A stretch of 64,000 nucleotides of DNA, from positions 1 through 64,000 of the IMG/VR virus record IMGVR_UViG_3300025832_000005, one strand, 5' to 3'. Position 1 is the first letter of the stretch. Every line of letters begins with the position of its first letter. This document shows, in pieces, positions 52,502 to 61,016 of the stretch. A program made the translations under genes and the position numbers. A model generated the notes under the pieces. The model saw only the letters and a list, made by a program, of their open reading frames with translations. It made no database searches and was not told the origin of the DNA. Source of the DNA: an uncultured virus (IMG/VR IMGVR_UViG_3300025832_000005) (lineage: Duplodnaviria > Heunggongvirae > Uroviricota > Caudoviricetes).

Positions 52502-53113
52502 TCAAGTACTTTGTGGCATAGTAAACAATGCTCTTACGTCATGTGACTCATTGCCTTCAATAGGCTTACGAGCAAATGCGCACCACTTGTATGCAAACAT
52601 TGTTTGATTGTCTGTACAGAATTCTCTAAAACTTGTACCTGTAGTATATACATCATCCACAACCATCCAAGGATGATCGCCTGGTGTTACATATTTTTCC
52701 ATAGCGTGTGCTAATGCCATTCCGCCACGTGGAATACCAACTACCTTACTAAAAGGTTCTGTTTGATAATCCATAATCATACGTGCTAATCCGTCCCACC
52801 ACTCTGGGCGTATAGCATCGCACTCAATCTTCCATGCTAGTTTATTTCCTGCGTGACTTGTAAAGTCACCTACTTCAAATAAGTCTGCGCCTGTTCTAAA
52901 TACCATTAGTTGCTTCTCCAATTCCATAATATATTCTGCAGCTTTCCAAGCATAGTGATCTGTACATTTTGTTTTCCATTCTTCACCTGCTTGGTTTTTT
53001 AATTTTACTACCCATTCAGTTTGTTCTACTCTTGCTTTAATTTCTGGATAGTCTTTATCAACAACATCATGTTCGTTTTCTTCTATCTCAAATCCATGTG
53101 TATTGTGTTGCAT
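52502..53113 (-). CDS. Type I phosphoribosyltransferase (orotate PRTase-like) with N-terminal extension
   Basis: GDFTSHAG, VVGIPRGG, VVDDVYTTGTS PRPP loop. Confidence 0.8.
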   Translation of the reverse strand: MQHNTHGFEIEENEHDVVDKDYPEIKARVEQTEWVVKLKNQAGEEWKTKCTDHYAWKAAEYIMELEKQLMVFRTGADLFEVGDFTSHAGNKLAWKIECDAIRPEWWDGLARMIMDYQTEPFSKVVGIPRGGMALAHAMEKYVTPGDHPWMVVDDVYTTGTSFREFCTDNQTMFAYKWCAFARKPIEGNESHDVRALFTMPQST

Positions 53114-53628
53114 TAGTATTCAACACCTGTGTAAAATGGTATACCACGAGCTTTTACTAAGTCGCTTCCACCTAATTTAGGTAGGTCAATAACAGTTGCT
53201 ACTGCCACAGTAAAAGCATTTAATTCTTGTACTAAATCCAATACTGCGCACATTGTGCCACCAGTTGCCATTAAGTCATCAATAATAAGGCAACGGTCTC
53301 CTGCTTCAATACTATCTGCTTGTATTTGTAATTTATTTGTTCCGTATTCTAAATCGTATTCTTTTTCAGCTATCTTACCAGGAAGTTTACCAGGTTTCCG
53401 TGCTAGTACTAGTGGGCCTCTTGTACGATGAGCAAACACACTAGCAAATATAAATCCACGAGCATCAATACCAATAATTTTATCTACAGGACAATATTTT
53501 AGTAAGTTACTGTATATAAAGTTATTTGCTTCTGCGTAACCATCTTGTGATGCGCATAAACTTGCTACATCCTTATAATCAATTCCATCAATTGGAAAGT
53601 TTTGGTAACTTGTTATGTATTGTTTCAT
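53113..53628 (-). CDS. apt: Adenine phosphoribosyltransferase
   Basis: FPIDGI.YKD, GIDARGF, RKPGKLP, YDLEYG, IIDDLMATGGT. Confidence 0.92.
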   Translation of the reverse strand: MKQYITSYQNFPIDGIDYKDVASLCASQDGYAEANNFIYSNLLKYCPVDKIIGIDARGFIFASVFAHRTRGPLVLARKPGKLPGKIAEKEYDLEYGTNKLQIQADSIEAGDRCLIIDDLMATGGTMCAVLDLVQELNAFTVAVATVIDLPKLGGSDLVKARGIPFYTGVEY

Positions 53629-53629
53629 T

Positions 53630-54490
53630 TTAATAACTCTGTGCTAGACGCCACATCAAATATTCTTTTGACTCAATGGGCTCATATTTTGATTGTTCGT
53701 CACGTAAGTTTTGTACTATTGTGCCGGGTGTTGGGTCTACAAAGTGTGGCATCGAATATCTTTGTTGATGTATATGACTGTTAACTACACGATGTTTAGT
53801 ACTTTTAAAATAATCGTTAGTCCAACGCTGTAGTAAGTCACCAATGTTAACAACTACTCCATCATCCGCATACGGGACCGGGTGCCACTCTTCTTTGAGA
53901 TCTTGGACTTGAAGCCCAGGAACATCATTAATCTGCCATAGTAATGTAATAGTGCCGTAGTCACTGTGTTCTCCTATACGCATTTGTTTATCTTGTACTG
54001 GTCCAGTATATGCTGGATAGTGAATAACTCTTGTTGTGTTAAATGGTTGTAAATGTGAATCTACTAGTGTAGTTCCACTATCTAAAATAGTATCAAACTT
54101 AGATAATATTTTCATAGTAAGTTTATCTGCAATGTCAATACTTTGTAAGGCTGTTGCTTTAAACTCTGGTAATTCTGTAGGCCAAAGGTCTTCTGGCATA
54201 CGTGTATTGTTGTAGTTAAAACTTTCTTTGATATCTTTTGGTGCTGTAGGATCAACGTTTTCGTCGCCTACCATGCTATAACCCAAGTTAGTATCTGCGT
54301 TATAAGGATAACTTTGTTTTTTATCCATTGGCAGTTCAAAGAATGCTTTCATTTGTTCTTGCCAAGACTTGATGTCTTGTTGATGTGTTTCAGTTAACGC
54401 ATTTGTAAACACTGCGAAGCCTACTGTTGTGTAGGCTTCGTCAATGCGATCTAAAGCGTCTGATGCTTGTAAATCAATTACTGGAATCAT
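53630..54490 (-). CDS. 2-oxoglutarate/Fe(II) dioxygenase (IPNS-like)
   Basis: IPVIDL, HSDYG (HxD), NIGDLLQRWTN, HRV, RYS. Confidence 0.9.
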   Translation of the reverse strand: MIPVIDLQASDALDRIDEAYTTVGFAVFTNALTETHQQDIKSWQEQMKAFFELPMDKKQSYPYNADTNLGYSMVGDENVDPTAPKDIKESFNYNNTRMPEDLWPTELPEFKATALQSIDIADKLTMKILSKFDTILDSGTTLVDSHLQPFNTTRVIHYPAYTGPVQDKQMRIGEHSDYGTITLLWQINDVPGLQVQDLKEEWHPVPYADDGVVVNIGDLLQRWTNDYFKSTKHRVVNSHIHQQRYSMPHFVDPTPGTIVQNLRDEQSKYEPIESKEYLMWRLAQSY

Positions 54491-55569
54491 TAACCAGGTA
54501 CCTTTGATGTAATGCCTTCGACATAGAACATCATAGTGTCTAGTTGCTGTCTAGTTGCTACTTCGCCTTCTTTCAGGAACACTGTTCCGTCTTGCTTGTT
54601 AATTGGACCTGTAAATCCAAATAACTCACCTGCGCTAATAGCATCTTTTACACGCTGTGCTTCTGCTTGTACGTCAGCTGGCATGTTAGCAAACGGTGCC
54701 ATTTGTACAGCGTCTTCGTTCATGTGTCCAAAGTAATCGCCTGTTTCCCATGTACCGTCTAGTACTTGTCCTACTTTCTTAATATAGTAAGGACCCCAAT
54801 TGTCAATAGTTGCTGTCAATTGTGCGTTAGGAGCAAACTTCATTTGATCACTTGCTTGTCCAAATCCAAGTACGCCTGCTTGTTCTGCTGATTGTAGTGG
54901 AGCAGGTGAGTCAGTATGCTGTGCTACAATGTCACAACCTTGGTCAATCAATGCTGTTGCCGCATCTTTTTCTTTACCTGGATCATACCATGTGTAAACC
55001 CACGCAATTGATAGTTCTACATCTGGATTGTACTTACGTGCACCCAAGAAGAACGTGTTAATCTCACGCATAACTTCTGGAATTGGGAATGAAGCAATAT
55101 AACAAATTTTGTTTGTTTTTGTCATCATACCTGCTACAACACCTTGTACGTGTCTTGCTTGGTATAGTTTCAAACCATAGTTAGCAACGTTGTCAGATGA
55201 TTTATAACCTGTAGCATGTTCAAACTTTACGTTTGGAAACTTCTTTGCTACGTTCATTATTGGATCCATATATCCAAATGATGTCGCAAAAATAATGTCT
55301 GCGCCCTGTAGTGCCATTTGTGTCATTACACGTTCAGCGTCAGCACCTTCTGCTACACTTTCAACAAATCGTGTTGTTACTCTGTCGCCGTATGCTTCTT
55401 CTACTTGCTGACGACCAATATCGTGACGGTATGTCCATCCGTGGTCACCAGTTGGTCCGACGTAAATAAATCCGACCGTGATGTTATCCTTAGGTGCATC
55501 TGCTTGTGCTGACACAGCTAAAGACCCCAACATTAATAATGTTGCGGAAAATAGTTTTAATAATTTCAT
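54490..55569 (-). CDS. BMP-family ABC transporter substrate-binding protein (purine nucleoside type)
   Basis: Signal peptide, GFIYVGP..DHGW...H..GR, TSFGYM, FPIPEV.R.IN, WYDP.KE, QHTDSP. Confidence 0.92.
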   Translation of the reverse strand: MKLLKLFSATLLMLGSLAVSAQADAPKDNITVGFIYVGPTGDHGWTYRHDIGRQQVEEAYGDRVTTRFVESVAEGADAERVMTQMALQGADIIFATSFGYMDPIMNVAKKFPNVKFEHATGYKSSDNVANYGLKLYQARHVQGVVAGMMTKTNKICYIASFPIPEVMREINTFFLGARKYNPDVELSIAWVYTWYDPGKEKDAATALIDQGCDIVAQHTDSPAPLQSAEQAGVLGFGQASDQMKFAPNAQLTATIDNWGPYYIKKVGQVLDGTWETGDYFGHMNEDAVQMAPFANMPADVQAEAQRVKDAISAGELFGFTGPINKQDGTVFLKEGEVATRQQLDTMMFYVEGITSKVPG

Positions 55570-56102: not shown

Positions 56103-56945
56103 ATGACGCAACTCATAAACCCACAAAAATTTACAGACACAGTTGGCCTTTTAAGGTCATTTTTTTTGGACAAAGGCTTCTTAGAAGTACATACCCAAAA
56201 TAGACTAAGCATACTTGCCGCATGTGAAGATCCGTTCAATGTAGCAACATACAATTACGCAGACCAGGTTTGGCCATTACCGCAAACAGGCCAGATGTGG
56301 TTAGAACATGAATTATTAAGCAAGCCCGATAGTAAGGGCTTTTTTTGTGTGTCAACGTCCTATAGACAGGAACCAAACGCTATACCAGGCAGACACGACA
56401 TTATCTTCCCAATGTTTGAGTTTGAGATGCCGGGCGATGTAGATGATCTTAAAAAGATGGAAATTGAACTATGTGATTACTTGGGCTTTGACCCACTAAC
56501 AGAAAAAACATACAGCGACTGGCAAAAACACTTTGGTGTAAGTCAATCAACTGAAATGGACGCACAACACGAATTAGCAATGGATATGAACTTTGGTAGT
56601 TGTTTAATTACAGACTTCCCAGAACTAACATCACCTTTCTGGAACATGGCACGTAACGATGATGGCAATACTGCTAAGAAGATGGATGTTATCTTAGGTG
56701 GTATGGAAACTATTGGATCAGCAGAACGTAGTTGTGATGTTGATATGATGCGTGATACATTCCACAGTATTGTAGACGGAGACTATGCTGAGCTGCTGTT
56801 TAAATTGTTTGGTAAAGAACGTGTAGAAGCAGAACTAGAAGAGTTCCTCAAGTTTGACTTCTTCCAAAGAGTAGGTGGTGGCATTGGCATGACACGTATG
56901 ATTGCCGCACTGGATAAACTACAAAGTTTAGACAAAGCCGCCTAA
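56103..56945 (+). CDS. Class IIb aminoacyl-tRNA synthetase catalytic-domain-only protein (Asn/Asp-type)
   Basis: Motif 1 LRSFFLDKGFLEVHT, motif 2 SYRQE...GRH...F.MFEFE, ETIGSAER, motif 3 GGGIGMTR; no N-terminal OB fold (280 aa). Confidence 0.85.
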   Translation: MTQLINPQKFTDTVGLLRSFFLDKGFLEVHTQNRLSILAACEDPFNVATYNYADQVWPLPQTGQMWLEHELLSKPDSKGFFCVSTSYRQEPNAIPGRHDIIFPMFEFEMPGDVDDLKKMEIELCDYLGFDPLTEKTYSDWQKHFGVSQSTEMDAQHELAMDMNFGSCLITDFPELTSPFWNMARNDDGNTAKKMDVILGGMETIGSAERSCDVDMMRDTFHSIVDGDYAELLFKLFGKERVEAELEEFLKFDFFQRVGGGIGMTRMIAALDKLQSLDKAA

Positions 56946-56952
56946 AAATTGA

Positions 56953-57052
56953 TCTGGGGTGGTGAAAGTGGTAGACACGCACGACTGTTTATCGTGTGGT
57001 AGATGTTCGCAAAATATTTATCGTGTAGGTTCGAATCCTACCCCCAGAGCCA
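56953..57052 (+). tRNA. tRNA with GTT (Asn) anticodon and long variable arm
   Basis: Acceptor TCTGGGG/CCCCAGA, G73, CCA; D arm GTG..GGTAGA.CAC; anticodon arm CACGA-CTGTTTA-TCGTG; ~25-nt variable arm; T arm GTAGG-TTCGAAT-CCTAC. Confidence 0.9.
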
Positions 57053-57517: not shown

Positions 57518-58072
57518 TTACATATTTGGTATTTTTAAAATATTATTAGTCAATTGTGTGGCACTTAGTTCAATACTGCGTTCCCACTGATTACTTGGCA
57601 TTGTTTGCCACATTAACTGATCAGTATAGTCTATTGACATCCAAGTACCAATGCCATTTGTACGGCTGCCAAGTATTTCGCTTTCTAGTTGTCCTGCTCC
57701 CCATGAACTTCTACCAACAATTACTCTCCAGTATTCAGGAAATTGTCCAATGTTCATTACGTTGACAATACTCTTGTCTTTTGTGATGCTTAGTGTATCA
57801 TTAAGTTTTCTTGTACTAGGTAATTTTAAATCATTACTGTGTATAACAACAGCATTGTTTACGTCTACTGGACCACCAAAGTATAATGGTATGTCACGAG
57901 TAAGATTCATACCTTTGCGTAAACGTTGTGTTATTTTATCATCTAATTGTTTATTAACTATCCAACCAGACGCTCCATCGCCAGTGTGCTTATTCATAAG
58001 AACAACACTGCGATTAAATGTTCCAGTATTTACAGCTGGAATGCTGATTAAAAAATCACCTGATAAGTTCAT
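57518..58072 (-). CDS. YqgE/AlgH (DUF179) family protein
   Basis: F.RSVV...H...GA.G.IVN, YFGGPV, G.SSWGAGQLESE. Confidence 0.88.
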   Translation of the reverse strand: MNLSGDFLISIPAVNTGTFNRSVVLMNKHTGDGASGWIVNKQLDDKITQRLRKGMNLTRDIPLYFGGPVDVNNAVVIHSNDLKLPSTRKLNDTLSITKDKSIVNVMNIGQFPEYWRVIVGRSSWGAGQLESEILGSRTNGIGTWMSIDYTDQLMWQTMPSNQWERSIELSATQLTNNILKIPNM

Positions 58073-58287
58073 TTATATTCCATCTCAGTAATAATATCAG
58101 TACCTTCTTTATCATTCGCAATGCCCAATGCCATTGCTTGTATATCATCTATAATATTTTGACAAGCTGCTTTGTCATAATCTTTATATGATATTTCACT
58201 AAACTCATTACGAACTCGATGTAACAGAATAGCTTTGTCTTTCATTACTTCAAGTCTTCTTAGAAGATCCTCAATAGAATGTTGCAT
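58069..58287 (-). CDS. Hypothetical protein
   Basis: GGAGG RBS, ATGA coupling. Confidence 0.6.
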   Translation of the reverse strand: MQHSIEDLLRRLEVMKDKAILLHRVRNEFSEISYKDYDKAACQNIIDDIQAMALGIANDKEGTDIITEMEYK

Positions 58288-58442
58288 ATAGCCTCCGTGT
58301 GTTAACTATATTTATAGCACTGATAGTTAATTAGTCAAGAAAAAAGCACCTTGTGGTGCTTTACTCTGTTGTACTGCGGCTTACTTACCGCCTTTTTTCT
58401 TCTCGCCTTTTGGCTTTGTGTATGTGTGATCTGGATCTAACA

Positions 58443-58577
58443 TTAACTTGTTTTATACATGTTATGTTTAAACTCTGAGATTTCATTGGCTTTATCATTC
58501 ATACCCATGTCTCGTAGTTGCTTGATACTCATACAGTAACTTCTGTATTCCATTAGTTTCATAAATCTTGTAAACAT
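58443..58577 (-). CDS. Small protein (44 aa, not in ORF track)
   Basis: MFTRFMKLMEYRSYCMSIKQLRDMG...; GAGG RBS; TAATG-coupled to a 20-aa Lys-rich ORF 58381..58443. Confidence 0.55.
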   Translation of the reverse strand: MFTRFMKLMEYRSYCMSIKQLRDMGMNDKANEISEFKHNMYKTS

Positions 58578-58593
58578 ATTATATTCCTCTTTG

Positions 58594-58815
58594 TTACATC
58601 TTTTTGCAGTCGAAGTAAGACTTTTCTAATTGTACTGGCACACCGCCTTTTGCGATACATACTTCTTTCCAGTTTGGTTCGTTAAATTTTTGAATAACAG
58701 CATAGAAACCAAAAGCTATACATATTACCATAAGTGAAGTCATAATTACAAACATATAGAAACCTAACTTCTGCACTACCTGTGCTGATATTTCAATGTG
58801 CTGATCACCTACCAT
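58594..58815 (-). CDS. Small membrane protein with C-terminal Cys pair
   Basis: TM helix, C..KGG.......DC; TAATG-coupled to atpE. Confidence 0.6.
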   Translation of the reverse strand: MVGDQHIEISAQVVQKLGFYMFVIMTSLMVICIAFGFYAVIQKFNEPNWKEVCIAKGGVPVQLEKSYFDCKKM

Positions 58816-59036
58816 TAGACAGCAAACATTAATAGCAGTGCTACTAAGAATGCAAATATTCCTAATGCTTCCGCAAATGCTACACCAACAAACATTGTGC
58901 CTGTGTCACTTTTCTTAGGCATTACTTTAAGTACACTACCTACAATCATTCCAACACCAATGGCTGCTCCGCCCATTCCAATTGTTGCTAACCCTGCGCC
59001 AATCATTGCGCCAAACGTTGCTATATCACCAGTCAT
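58815..59036 (-). CDS. atpE: F0 ATP synthase subunit c, variant polar loop
   Basis: [18 protein letters not shown] glycine motif; FAEALGIF proton-binding Glu; ALLLMFAV end; no R(N/Q)P loop. Confidence 0.88.
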
Positions 59037-59233
59037 TAATTATTCTCCGTCATTAATCTTCTTGCTTCTTCTACATACCCTTGACGGTATAATTCACTTG
59101 CTGCTCTTGCTCTTCCAGCTGACTCACCAAATGCCCATAAAAACATTCCAGTTGCTACAATTGCTTTTGAAAGAATGGCACATGTTTTACATGTAATTCC
59201 CCATGTGTTTGATTTCATTGTTGCTACAGTCAT
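59036..59233 (-). CDS. Small hypothetical protein
   Basis: [23 protein letters not shown] coupling. Confidence 0.65.
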
Positions 59234-59490
59234 TATATAGATCCTCTCAAGTTTTCGTTAACTTCGATACCACGTTTGATTGTTCTATCACCACGTGCAA
59301 TGTTTCTAATGTCGCCACGGCAAATGCCGATGTCGTTTAGTTCATAGTCGTTTAACTTGCTAAGTTCTTTATAAGTTTGTTTGTATGATGCTTTACGTTC
59401 TGCACGTAGTTTCATTGCTCTACGTAAGTCATTGAATCCTTCGATTGCATCTTGAATCCAACTTGACGCTTCTATTACATAATGTGCCAT
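59233..59490 (-). CDS. DUF1127 (YjiS-like) small protein
   Basis: T.KELSKLNDYELNDIGICRGDI. Confidence 0.85.
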   Translation of the reverse strand: MAHYVIEASSWIQDAIEGFNDLRRAMKLRAERKASYKQTYKELSKLNDYELNDIGICRGDIRNIARGDRTIKRGIEVNENLRGSI

Positions 59491-59669
59491 TAGAGATGTA
59501 CTCCCATGTTAGGTGCTGAACCTGAATGATCTAGCATATATTGATAAGCAAACTGCCAATCTTTTCCGTATTCTGTTTTTGCGTATGTAAGCATCTCTTT
59601 TTCGAACTTCCGTGTTGGAAGTGGATTTCCAAGTAAACTTACAAGACCGTTGAATGTGTCGTTAAACAT
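59490..59669 (-). CDS. Small protein (59 aa, not in ORF track)
   Basis: MFNDTFNGL...YAKTEYGKDWQFAY.YM...; AAGGA RBS; TAATG coupling. Confidence 0.65.
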   Translation of the reverse strand: MFNDTFNGLVSLLGNPLPTRKFEKEMLTYAKTEYGKDWQFAYQYMLDHSGSAPNMGVHL

Positions 59670-59867
59670 TTTGTTTTTCCTTGATTAAGTTTTAAAATGC
59701 TTGAGGAAAGCAATACCCCCCGTCTTTTCAGGGTGTCATTTCATAAAAAAAGTGTAAACACTATTTTGTGTTCACACTTATATTTAACATGGATTTCAGT
59801 GATTTACTACTGCATTTTGCGTAGACTCGATATGCGTTTAACGCAACTGTGCGTTATTGCGCAGCTA

Positions 59868-61016
59868 CTATAACTTGGTGGTAGTAGACTCATACGTTTT
59901 ATTAAACTGGTTGTTTACACGAATAAATGTTGTACATTTACTCAGTTGCTTTAGTGTATTGGCACCAACGTATGTACATGTACTGCGAACGCCGCCCAGA
60001 ATGTTTTGCACAGTTCTAGCAATTTCACCACGATAAGGCACAAGCACTTCACGTCCTTCACTTGAACGATACTCTTTAAGTCCGCCAAAGTGTTTAGTGT
60101 TTGCCGCATCACTGCTCATTCCGTAGAACTTTATGAATTGTTTTTCTTCTACTTTATGTACACAATTGGCCAAATGCTCGCCAACTTGATATTCTAGTTC
60201 ACTAGTTTCATAGTATCGGGTAATTACGTCACCACCACCTTCATCGTGTCCAGCAAGCATACCGCCTAGCATTACAAAGTCGGCCCCGCCCGCAAAAGCC
60301 TTAGCAATATCGCCAGGACAGGTACACCCACCGTCAGCAATAATATGACCACCAAGGCCATGAGCGGCATCAGCGCACTCAATAACGGCACTGAGCTGTG
60401 GATATCCCACACCAGTTTGAATACGAGTGGTACATACACTACCTGGTCCAATACCAACTTTAACTATGTCTGCTCCATTTAGTATTAACTCTTGCGTTTG
60501 ATCTGCCGTAACCACATTACCAGCAATAATTACTACTTTAGGAAAGCGGAATTTAAATTCTCCCACAAACTCCACAAAACGTTGACTGTATCCGTTTGCC
60601 ACATCAATACAAACGTATTTTAAATTTTCTTTACATACTGTATAAACTTTTTCAAATTTGTTTAAGTCACGATCCTGAATACCAATACTCATAGCAACAT
60701 AGTCACTACGCTCAGGTAAATCAGATGTAAAGTATTTGATTAAATCTTGTTCACTATATGTTTTAACTAGACATGTAAAGATGTTGCCTTCAGCAAGTTT
60801 GTCTGCCATTTCAAATGTACCAACACCATCCATGTTGCTTGCCATAATTGGAACACCTTTCCAATCATATTCTCCAGACATAATGTCTTGTTTGTTATAA
60901 TTACGGAATGTAAATTCACGTTCTAAGTTTACTTCTTTGCGTGAGCCTAATGTGCTACGCTTTGGACGAATCAAGACATCGCTGTAGTCCAACAGTACTT
61001 CATTTTCAATTCTCAT
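59868..61016 (-). CDS. guaC: GMP reductase
   Basis: [60 protein letters not shown]. Confidence 0.93.

Follow-up and report, generated by a model that had tools for sequence, protein, structure and literature searches.

Asparaginyl-tRNA synthetase (AsnRS; PDB 8H53, 2XTI, 1X54 and 9SH8) combines a class IIb catalytic core, characterized by arginines in motifs 2 and 3, a flipping-loop glutamate and a Q..Q..LE pocket, with an N-terminal oligonucleotide-binding (OB) fold. Such aminoacyl-tRNA synthetase (aaRS) cores also occur alone, as metabolic ligases (in part proposed) in AS-AR (PDB 3P8T and 3REU) and bacterial AsnA, and in EpmA/GenX (PoxA), the lysine aminoacylase of elongation factor P (EF-P), which likewise has a class IIb core but no anticodon domain. 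Bacterial tRNA-Asn is a substrate of AsnRS, or of a non-discriminating aspartyl-tRNA synthetase (ND-AspRS) together with GatCAB, and both the amidation of Asp-tRNAAsn by GatCAB and the use of Glu-tRNA in tetrapyrrole synthesis are cases in which a tRNA serves as an amino-acid carrier. To our knowledge, AS-AR has neither a partner tRNA nor a pyrimidine context, and neither of these tRNA-dependent transformations uses a dedicated abnormal tRNA encoded beside the enzyme gene or is tied to nucleotide synthesis. Here, an AsnRS-like gene and the long-variable-arm tRNA(GUU) directly behind it were analysed in an uncultured Caudoviricetes virus (IMG/VR record IMGVR_UViG_3300025832_000005), of which positions 1 to 64,000 form the window, that is, the whole stretch of DNA studied. 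The gene and the tRNA are a real, co-inherited module, which probably feeds nucleotide synthesis and does not simply charge a private tRNA.

The enzyme family has so far gone undescribed. Full-text searches of the literature, supplements aside, turned up neither the pair nor the pathway. In excerpts of a cyanophage comparison, the gene is merely tabled as 'tRNA ligase' (T4-GC 194) (PMC3037559), and the pair is not mentioned in those of a pelagimyophage paper (PMC7029224).

Linkage of the enzyme gene and the tRNA in phages

The stop codon of the enzyme gene ends at 56945 and the tRNA starts at 56953, leaving a gap of 7 nt; the original prediction, which placed a tRNA 7 nt behind a 280-aa class IIb core, was confirmed in its coordinates. 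In a tblastn search of isolate phages, relatives of the enzyme were found in the Prochlorococcus phages P-SSM7, P-SSM2 and P-SSM5 (68%, 66% and 65% identity, respectively), where they are annotated as 'tRNA ligase', and in three huge-phage records (44-48% identity). All three Prochlorococcus phages have an 85-88-nt tRNA-Asn(GUU) with a CUGUUUA loop 7-10 nt behind the gene, and this gene-linked tRNA is the only match to the tRNA model in the whole record of P-SSM2. Among relatives in IMG/VR, covariance model R1 placed the tRNA downstream of the enzyme gene in 76 of the 80 loci of the window clade; one of the misses (L016) is cut by the contig end, and the other three (L029, L060 and L061) have no tRNA within 2.5 kb. 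The tRNA was also found in 75 of the 80 loci of the cyanophage clade, with the contigs of the five misses ending at the gene or at most 34 nt past it. At the tRNA-less locus L029, a ribose-5-phosphate isomerase B gene (L029:2003-2431) lies directly upstream of the enzyme gene.

The linkage also holds in the reverse direction. An 18-mer of the anticodon arm retrieved 50 IMG/VR loci, and the enzyme gene is directly upstream of the tRNA in all 48 that were testable, i.e., with at least 150 nt of upstream sequence. Moreover, a gene-tRNA spacing of 4-10 nt is kept across clades whose proteins are 65-68% identical. All these loci come from related phages and do not count as independent events. Near the huge-phage loci (L004, L005, L177 and L178), no long-arm GUU tRNA is present; in the whole records LR756501 and LR756508, the best matches to the tRNA model are tRNA-Leu and others, no long-arm GUU tRNA was found, and LR756508 carries a normal 74-nt tRNA-Asn. 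The predicted adjacency of a long-variable-arm tRNA(GUU) to homologs of the enzyme is therefore borne out, with covarying stems, in the two phage clades, but not in the huge-phage or cellular homologs, which lack the tRNA. The module is very abundant: the protein clusters scored, at 90% identity, number more than 8000, and each IMG/VR scan gave at least about 600 loci. Single-protein scans of IMG/VR with the distant members P0220, P0196 and P0156 found no relatives.

Structure and identity marks of the tRNA

The tRNA scores 47.1 bits with the Rfam tRNA model, which assigns GUU within the anticodon loop CUGUUUA and a 25-nt insertion in the variable region. This region comprises about 28 nt with an 8-bp hairpin, in agreement with the earlier call of an Asn anticodon on a long-variable-arm body; the D stem has 3 bp, the T arm is normal and position 37 is U. 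The ARAGORN label Asp(atc) was rejected, because it needs a stem of G-U pairs, whereas Rfam and covariation back a CACGA/TCGTG stem with GUU; the misfold is explained by the 28-nt variable region.

Comparison of 47 distinct relatives placed the structure of the tRNA far beyond chance. Pairing is found in 99.3% of cells against 85.1% in shuffles, double changes occur at 16 of 27 pairs, none of 500 shuffles reached the observed values, and sliding the pairing partners lowers pairing to 38-64%. In the acceptor stem, U1-A72 is identical in all 47 sequences, with compensatory double changes at each of the six other pairs. GUU, G73 and U1-A72 are invariant both in these 47 and in 53 distinct sequences, and GUU and G73 are invariant in both phage clades. 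The variable arm spans 13-31 nt and always contains a paired stem of 3-10 bp, and the anticodon is always GUU, never one for Leu, Ser or Tyr as in class II tRNAs. Most relatives have U at position 37, with A or C also occurring there; C at position 33 is found in several separate lineages, and positions 32 and 38 are variable.

GUU and G73 are marks for AsnRS and ND-AspRS, and U1-A72 is a mark for GatCAB, whereas a tRNA that decodes A-starting codons well has U33 and a modified A37. The odd tRNA shares GUU, G73 and U1-A72 with bacterial tRNA-Asn but differs from it in the long variable arm, the 3-bp D stem, the usual U37 (rarely A or C), the occasional C33 and the fixed position behind one enzyme gene. 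The canonical tRNA-Asn of the same phage genome likewise carries GUU, G73 and U1-A72, and has the short variable loop, the 4-bp D stem and A37, all three of which the window tRNA lacks.

In one sub-lineage (L008, L012, L013, L014 and L018), a single U bulges out of the T stem on its 5' strand; the sub-lineage seems to be maintained, because its acceptor stem still shows compensatory changes. Two 99-nt long-variable-arm tRNAs were also observed in the huge phage LR756508 (L094:119-217 and L094:913-1011), labelled Pro(tgg) and Leu(aag) by ARAGORN; long arms on normally class I tRNAs may be more widespread in phages.

Fold and active site of the enzyme

The sole Pfam domain of the 280-aa protein is tRNA-synt_2 (PF00152), the class II D/K/N core (E 7.6e-17, profile positions 29-300 of 308), and Pfam gave no match to the OB-fold family PF01336 in this protein. 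In PHROGs, it has a full-length match to phrog_29758, a family of unknown function (E 9.9e-132, residues 1-271, profile 1-266 of 267). The AlphaFold model has a mean predicted local distance difference test score (pLDDT) of 96.1, and its residues 1-273 align with residues 233-530 of human AsnRS, i.e., with the catalytic domain only, leaving no room for an OB-fold. Pfam and the model alignment thus agree with the predicted absence of an anticodon-binding domain.

In both structure and sequence, the enzyme is closest to true AsnRS. VIA-align comparisons with seven AsnRS entries gave Z 27.1-28.2 and a root-mean-square deviation of 2.1-2.4 over about 250 residues, followed by archaeal AspRS (Z 26.6), GenX (Z 24.2) and AS-AR (Z 23.4-23.6), so that AS-AR ranks below 30 AsnRS, AspRS, LysRS and GenX entries. 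Likewise, a 50-sequence family profile matched PDB sequences of AsnRS (E 9e-15), archaeal AspRS (1.7e-13), AS-AR (5.5e-8) and EpmA (1e-4). The phage enzyme hence matches AsnRS better than AS-AR by both measures (Z 28 vs 23.6; E 9e-15 vs 5.5e-8). AsnA (PDB 11AS/12AS) is not among the matches listed for profile or structure, which carries no weight either way. Membership models set the enzyme apart from the named families: its scores are far below the asnS equivalog cut-offs (TIGR00457, 29.1 vs 342.6 bits; NF003037, 27.6 vs 414), sub-threshold for the NCBIfam ND-aspS model (27 bits), and below the cut-offs for asparagine synthetase A (NF005055, 23.9 vs 389 bits) and EpmA (TIGR00462, 13.6 vs 286.9 bits; NF006828, 14.4 vs 264). 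The enzyme belongs to neither the AS-AR nor the EpmA family.

Motifs 1-3 had been described as intact. This is correct for the motif 2 arginine (R88) and the motif 3 arginine (R265), whereas motif 1, which canonically has a proline, carries at that site Gln32, invariant in the family. Motif 2 contributes R88/E90/R97/H98, and D195/E202/R209 are further key residues. The pocket motif PQTGQMWLE (Q61/Q64/L67/E68; family form PQTGQMxLE) aligns with TQSSQLYLE of AsnRS, sharing its Leu and Glu, unlike AQSPQLYKQ of archaeal AspRS with Lys and Gln. The flipping-loop E42 aligns with E279 of human AsnRS, and R88 and E90 with R322 and E324; excerpts of one paper (PMC10831071) name these residues as contacts of the Asn moiety, the phosphate and the adenylate. 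Based on the AsnRS-like fold, the Leu-Glu pocket and the aligned contact residues, the family most likely binds asparagine, or an Asn-shaped moiety, together with ATP. In addition to the missing OB-fold and the Gln in motif 1, the phage enzyme differs from canonical AsnRS in its low identity (20-22%) and in its close relatives, which lie in pyrimidine clusters or are fused to PyrD or PyrF. It differs from EpmA/GenX in its Asn-type pocket and in the lack of an EF-P context.

Cellular homologs and pyrimidine genes

To place the family among cellular organisms, one genome per prokaryotic species was scanned, which gave 425 relatives, and the best 80 of these were examined. At least 70 of the 80 are cellular loci encoding proteins of 55-61% identity, on large contigs of Patescibacteria, Saprospiraceae, Weeksellaceae, other Flavobacteriales, Rickettsiales and other Proteobacteria. 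No cellular locus among the best 80 has the odd tRNA, which was found only on seven phage-like contigs (L179-L182, L185, L187 and L235).

Several lines of evidence support a role of the family in pyrimidine synthesis in cells. Among 685 representatives at 50% identity (E up to 0.001), P0124 (661 aa, 56% identical) is a fusion of dihydroorotate dehydrogenase (DHO_dh) with the family domain, and P0139 (588 aa, 47% identical) is a fusion of the family domain with orotidine monophosphate decarboxylase (OMPdecase). An OMPdecase gene, a DHO_dh gene or a PyrE-PyrF fusion is at most two genes away in 5 of 24 cellular loci (L192, L193, L215, L238 and L251). By their coordinates, family, PyrD-like, PyrE and PyrF genes are contiguous in a member of Midichloriaceae (G022), as are PyrF, PyrD and family genes in an alphaproteobacterium (G019).

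Across the 24 family-bearing genomes, each searched as a whole, PyrF is present in 19, a PyrE-like gene in 19 and a strong PyrD (>200 bits) in 11, and matches over the cut-off were found in only 1 genome for aspartate transcarbamoylase (ATCase), in 4 for CarB and in 1 for each of two types of dihydroorotase, 2 genomes in all, with three further strong sub-threshold dihydroorotase matches. Eight of the 11 genomes with a strong PyrD, among them genomes of 6.7 and 4.4 Mb, lack any transcarbamoylase match. As a baseline, 124 of 151 sampled Flavobacteriales and all 14 control genomes have ATCase; a single one of the 151 Flavobacteriales has the family, and that genome lacks ATCase. GatB is over the cut-off in 19 of the 24 genomes and AsnRS is present in the other 5. 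Because every genome thus keeps GatB or AsnRS, the cellular family members are not the cell's AsnRS.

In many of the loci, the family gene has other neighbours. A Dus-like flavoenzyme gene is just upstream in four Patescibacteria loci (L189, L191, L229 and L240), a Lyase_1 and Amidohydro_1 pair adjoins the gene in L230 and L233, GatC and GatA are upstream of it in a Peribacteria locus (L209), and a TIR-domain gene lies between PyrD and the family gene in Aureispira (L193).

Comparison of phage and cellular enzymes

A tree was built from 112 representatives (<88% identity) of 241 sequences, after removal of rows that contained stops or had under 245 aligned residues. The tRNA-linked enzymes form one clade of 44 rows plus one loss, nested among cellular homologs, with 96 in the Shimodaira-Hasegawa-like approximate likelihood ratio test (SH-aLRT); two rows (L155 and L163) count as tRNA-linked even though their contigs stop short of the tRNA position. 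Comparison of the 44 tRNA-linked with 60 cellular representatives showed 88 positions with at least 95% identity in each group, every named active-site residue among them. Just seven internal positions set the phage group apart, none of them basic, and the mean net charge is -19 in phage enzymes and -11 in cellular ones. The original prediction that the enzyme may charge this dedicated tRNA as a host-independent Asn-tRNA route is weakened accordingly, as the phage group has no specific change that is basic and faces the tRNA, and the active site is the same as in cells.

The sister group of the tRNA-linked clade consists of L183, L184 and L186, short contigs of marine metagenome-assembled genomes (MAGs) binned as Alphaproteobacteria, Pacearchaeota and Thaumarchaeota, with 62-63% identical genes without the tRNA.

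A possible role in pyrimidine synthesis

We favour, with the chances evenly balanced, a reading in which the enzyme makes a pyrimidine precursor from activated asparagine and the tRNA is its captive carrier. The protein would be an AsnRS-derived catalytic core whose cellular relatives would work at the start of pyrimidine synthesis, ahead of dihydroorotate dehydrogenase. Marine myophages may have taken the gene from a cellular, alphaproteobacterial-like source, and one lineage would have joined a purpose-built tRNA to it. The enzyme is proposed to bind Asn (or an Asn-shaped moiety) and ATP and to form an activated asparaginyl intermediate, which would be converted into a pyrimidine-ring precursor; dihydroorotate would be the simplest such product, as asparagine contains all of its ring atoms but C2. 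In the phage-infected cell, the product might enter the host PyrD, PyrE and PyrF reactions, so that the regulated early steps would be bypassed. The tRNA could be loaded with Asn by host AsnRS, by ND-AspRS and GatCAB, or by the phage enzyme itself, and would then be a captive carrier that donates or accepts activated asparagine, with translation not its main task. This role is suggested by the tRNA having kept the marks of Asn loading but not those of a good decoder.

A bolder form of the pathway, which we consider rather unlikely, is a one-enzyme pyrimidine entry, Asn + CO2 + ATP -> dihydroorotate + AMP + PPi, that would replace CarAB, PyrB and PyrC, with the phage tRNA supplying an Asn ester. 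Asn-AMP would be formed exactly as by AsnRS, CO2 would add to the free amino group with closure onto the activated carbonyl to give an N-carboxyanhydride, and the side-chain amide nitrogen would attack the carbamate carbon to give dihydroorotate, a scheme modelled on general N-carboxyanhydride chemistry. In marine phages, the Asn ester borne by tRNA(GUU) would be chemically equivalent to Asn-AMP, and host AsnRS, or ND-AspRS with GatCAB, would load the tRNA by means of GUU, G73 and U1-A72.

Several observations weigh against a pyrimidine role of the phage pair. We infer the enzyme's substrate and product as well as what the tRNA does for it. The pocket looks like one for alpha-carboxylate activation of Asn, as in tRNA charging, and the tRNA keeps all the Asn identity marks named above, which leaves plain aminoacylation some probability. 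The phage enzyme is very acidic, which speaks against tight binding of any tRNA, a captive carrier included. Neither PyrD nor PyrF was found in any of five phage records (the window's own phage G000, P-SSM7, P-SSM2 and two huge-phage records), so the pyrimidine link rests on the cellular homologs and any product would feed host enzymes. Three phage loci (L029, L060 and L061) and the four huge-phage loci do without the tRNA. On the cellular side, the 80 loci are the closest relatives, chosen via conserved motifs, and hence a biased sample; the genomes are MAGs of unreported completeness, which makes gene absences soft; three genomes (G009, G018 and G019) carry the family and CarB together; and several homologs have no pyr gene nearby, some of them lying by Dus, GatC and GatA, or aaRS genes.

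The alternative closest to the original prediction is a minimal, anticodon-blind AsnRS that would charge the neighbouring tRNA by way of its acceptor stem and variable arm, as a private Asn-tRNA supply for translation. Such an enzyme would account for the AsnRS-like fold and pocket motif, the retention of all ATP- and amino-group-binding residues, the near-absolute linkage of gene and tRNA in two phage clades, and the lone tRNA-model match in the P-SSM2 record; the freezing of U1-A72 and G73 while the rest of the acceptor stem covaries fits identity at the acceptor end, and decoding would require an invariant GUU. The frozen GUU is nevertheless not explicable by the enzyme itself, which lacks an anticodon domain, and the usual U37 and the C33 of several lineages are poor for decoding. 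Close cellular homologs lie in pyrimidine clusters without the tRNA, in genomes that keep AsnRS or GatB, no phage-specific substitution is basic or tRNA-facing, the mean net charge is -19, and the same genome encodes a canonical tRNA-Asn. We therefore regard private charging as improbable, and the suggestion that it provides a host-independent supply of Asn-tRNA for Asn-rich genes loses ground to the same pyr-linked, tRNA-less homologs, canonical tRNA-Asn and U37/C33. A somewhat smaller chance still is given to a metabolic, pyrimidine-related enzyme that never touches tRNA, with the tRNA as a hitch-hiking decoder or an element for RNA processing or stability. That cellular and huge-phage homologs manage without the tRNA, that three phage loci have lost it, that the enzyme shows no phage-specific changes of the kind expected for tRNA contact, and that phage tRNAs often cluster with unrelated genes would all be explained in this way. 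The tRNA is, however, never away from the gene (48 of 48 testable loci), and their spacing of 4-10 nt persists between clades 65-68% identical; a plain decoder should lie in the tRNA array, alongside the canonical tRNA-Asn, and a mere processing signal would not hold GUU, G73 and U1-A72 invariant.

The two known kinds of stand-alone core fare worse. An asparagine synthetase of the AS-AR/AsnA kind, producing free Asn from Asp, ATP and NH3, would have the same core-alone architecture, and AS-AR is matched by the family profile (E 5.5e-8) and by structure (Z 23.6); it is nonetheless very unlikely, given an NCBIfam score of 23.9 bits against a cut-off of 389, AsnRS entries 4-5 Z units above AS-AR, the AsnRS-type pocket motif, and fusions and neighbours that are pyrimidine and not asparagine genes, and it gives no reason for a dedicated tRNA. 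Scarcely credible is an EpmA/GenX-like aminoacylase that modifies a protein such as EF-P: the class IIb architecture without an extra domain is the same and GenX structures align at Z 24.2, but TIGR00462 gives 13.6 bits against 286.9, the pocket is of Asn and not Lys type, and no EpmB or EF-P context occurs in the neighbourhoods examined.

If the favoured pyrimidine-precursor reading is true, the family would represent an unknown route into a textbook pathway where CarAB, PyrB and PyrC are missing, and would account for pyrimidine synthesis in many ultrasmall bacteria, in Rickettsiales-like bacteria and in some Bacteroidota. The phage module, by circumventing the host's regulated early steps, would constitute a novel type of auxiliary metabolic gene, and the first enzyme travelling with its own non-standard tRNA. 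The bolder form would add the first tRNA-dependent step in nucleotide synthesis, with a tRNA built for non-ribosomal use. Were the private AsnRS true instead, it would be the smallest natural AsnRS, with a naturally orthogonal class II-shaped tRNA of interest for genetic-code engineering. The module is directly testable, because it is present in the cultivable phages P-SSM2, P-SSM5 and P-SSM7.

Genomic surroundings of the pair

The features of the locus are listed in Table 1. As had been predicted, the ORF and RNA calls agree that the pair is on the plus strand in a minus-strand region: all ORFs flanking the pair and the transfer-messenger RNA (tmRNA) are on the minus strand, and the tmRNA is divergent from the enzyme gene. 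A nucleotide-metabolism island surrounds the pair (52502-55569 and 57518-61016, minus strand).

Table 1 Features of the AsnRS-like gene/tRNA locus and related features of the same phage genome
Feature	Position	Strand	Basis or remark
AsnRS-like class IIb core gene, 280 aa	56103..56945	+	ATG start; open reading frame (ORF) call
tRNA(GUU), 100 nt, encoded CCA (57050-57052)	56953..57052	+	Rfam tRNA, covariation
Permuted alpha-type tmRNA, tag ANANRAPEMALAA	55582-56026	-	ARAGORN; Rfam alpha_tmRNA 127 bits
Phosphoribosyltransferase (PRTase)	53113-53628	-	window neighbour of the pair
2-Oxoglutarate (2OG)-Fe(II) oxygenase	53630-54490	-	window neighbour of the pair
Bmp/PnrA-like nucleoside-binding protein	54490-55569	-	window neighbour of the pair
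AlgH-like protein	57518-58072	-	window neighbour of the pair
GMP reductase/IMPDH-family gene	59868-61016	-	window neighbour of the pair
Canonical tRNA-Asn(GUU), 76 nt	G000:101262-101337 (same phage genome, beyond window)		A37, 5-nt variable loop, 4-bp D stem
tRNA array Gln, Glu, Leu, Thr, Ser, Asn, Leu, Met, Arg	G000:C1:99649-102159		ARAGORN; holds canonical tRNA-Asn

A promoter scan of the locus gave 1 promoter-like site against 4.2 expected. Contigs from RNA libraries (4 metatranscriptome runs of 2 studies) cover the enzyme gene, such contigs being no proof of transcription, and 3 of them span the gene end and the tRNA, which is no proof of a single transcript or of processing. When the window tmRNA was compared with 401 Alphaproteobacteria, matches were limited to a 40-nt conserved core, in 7 of the 401. 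In the RNA-library contigs, the tmRNA stretch is several-fold deeper than its flanks.

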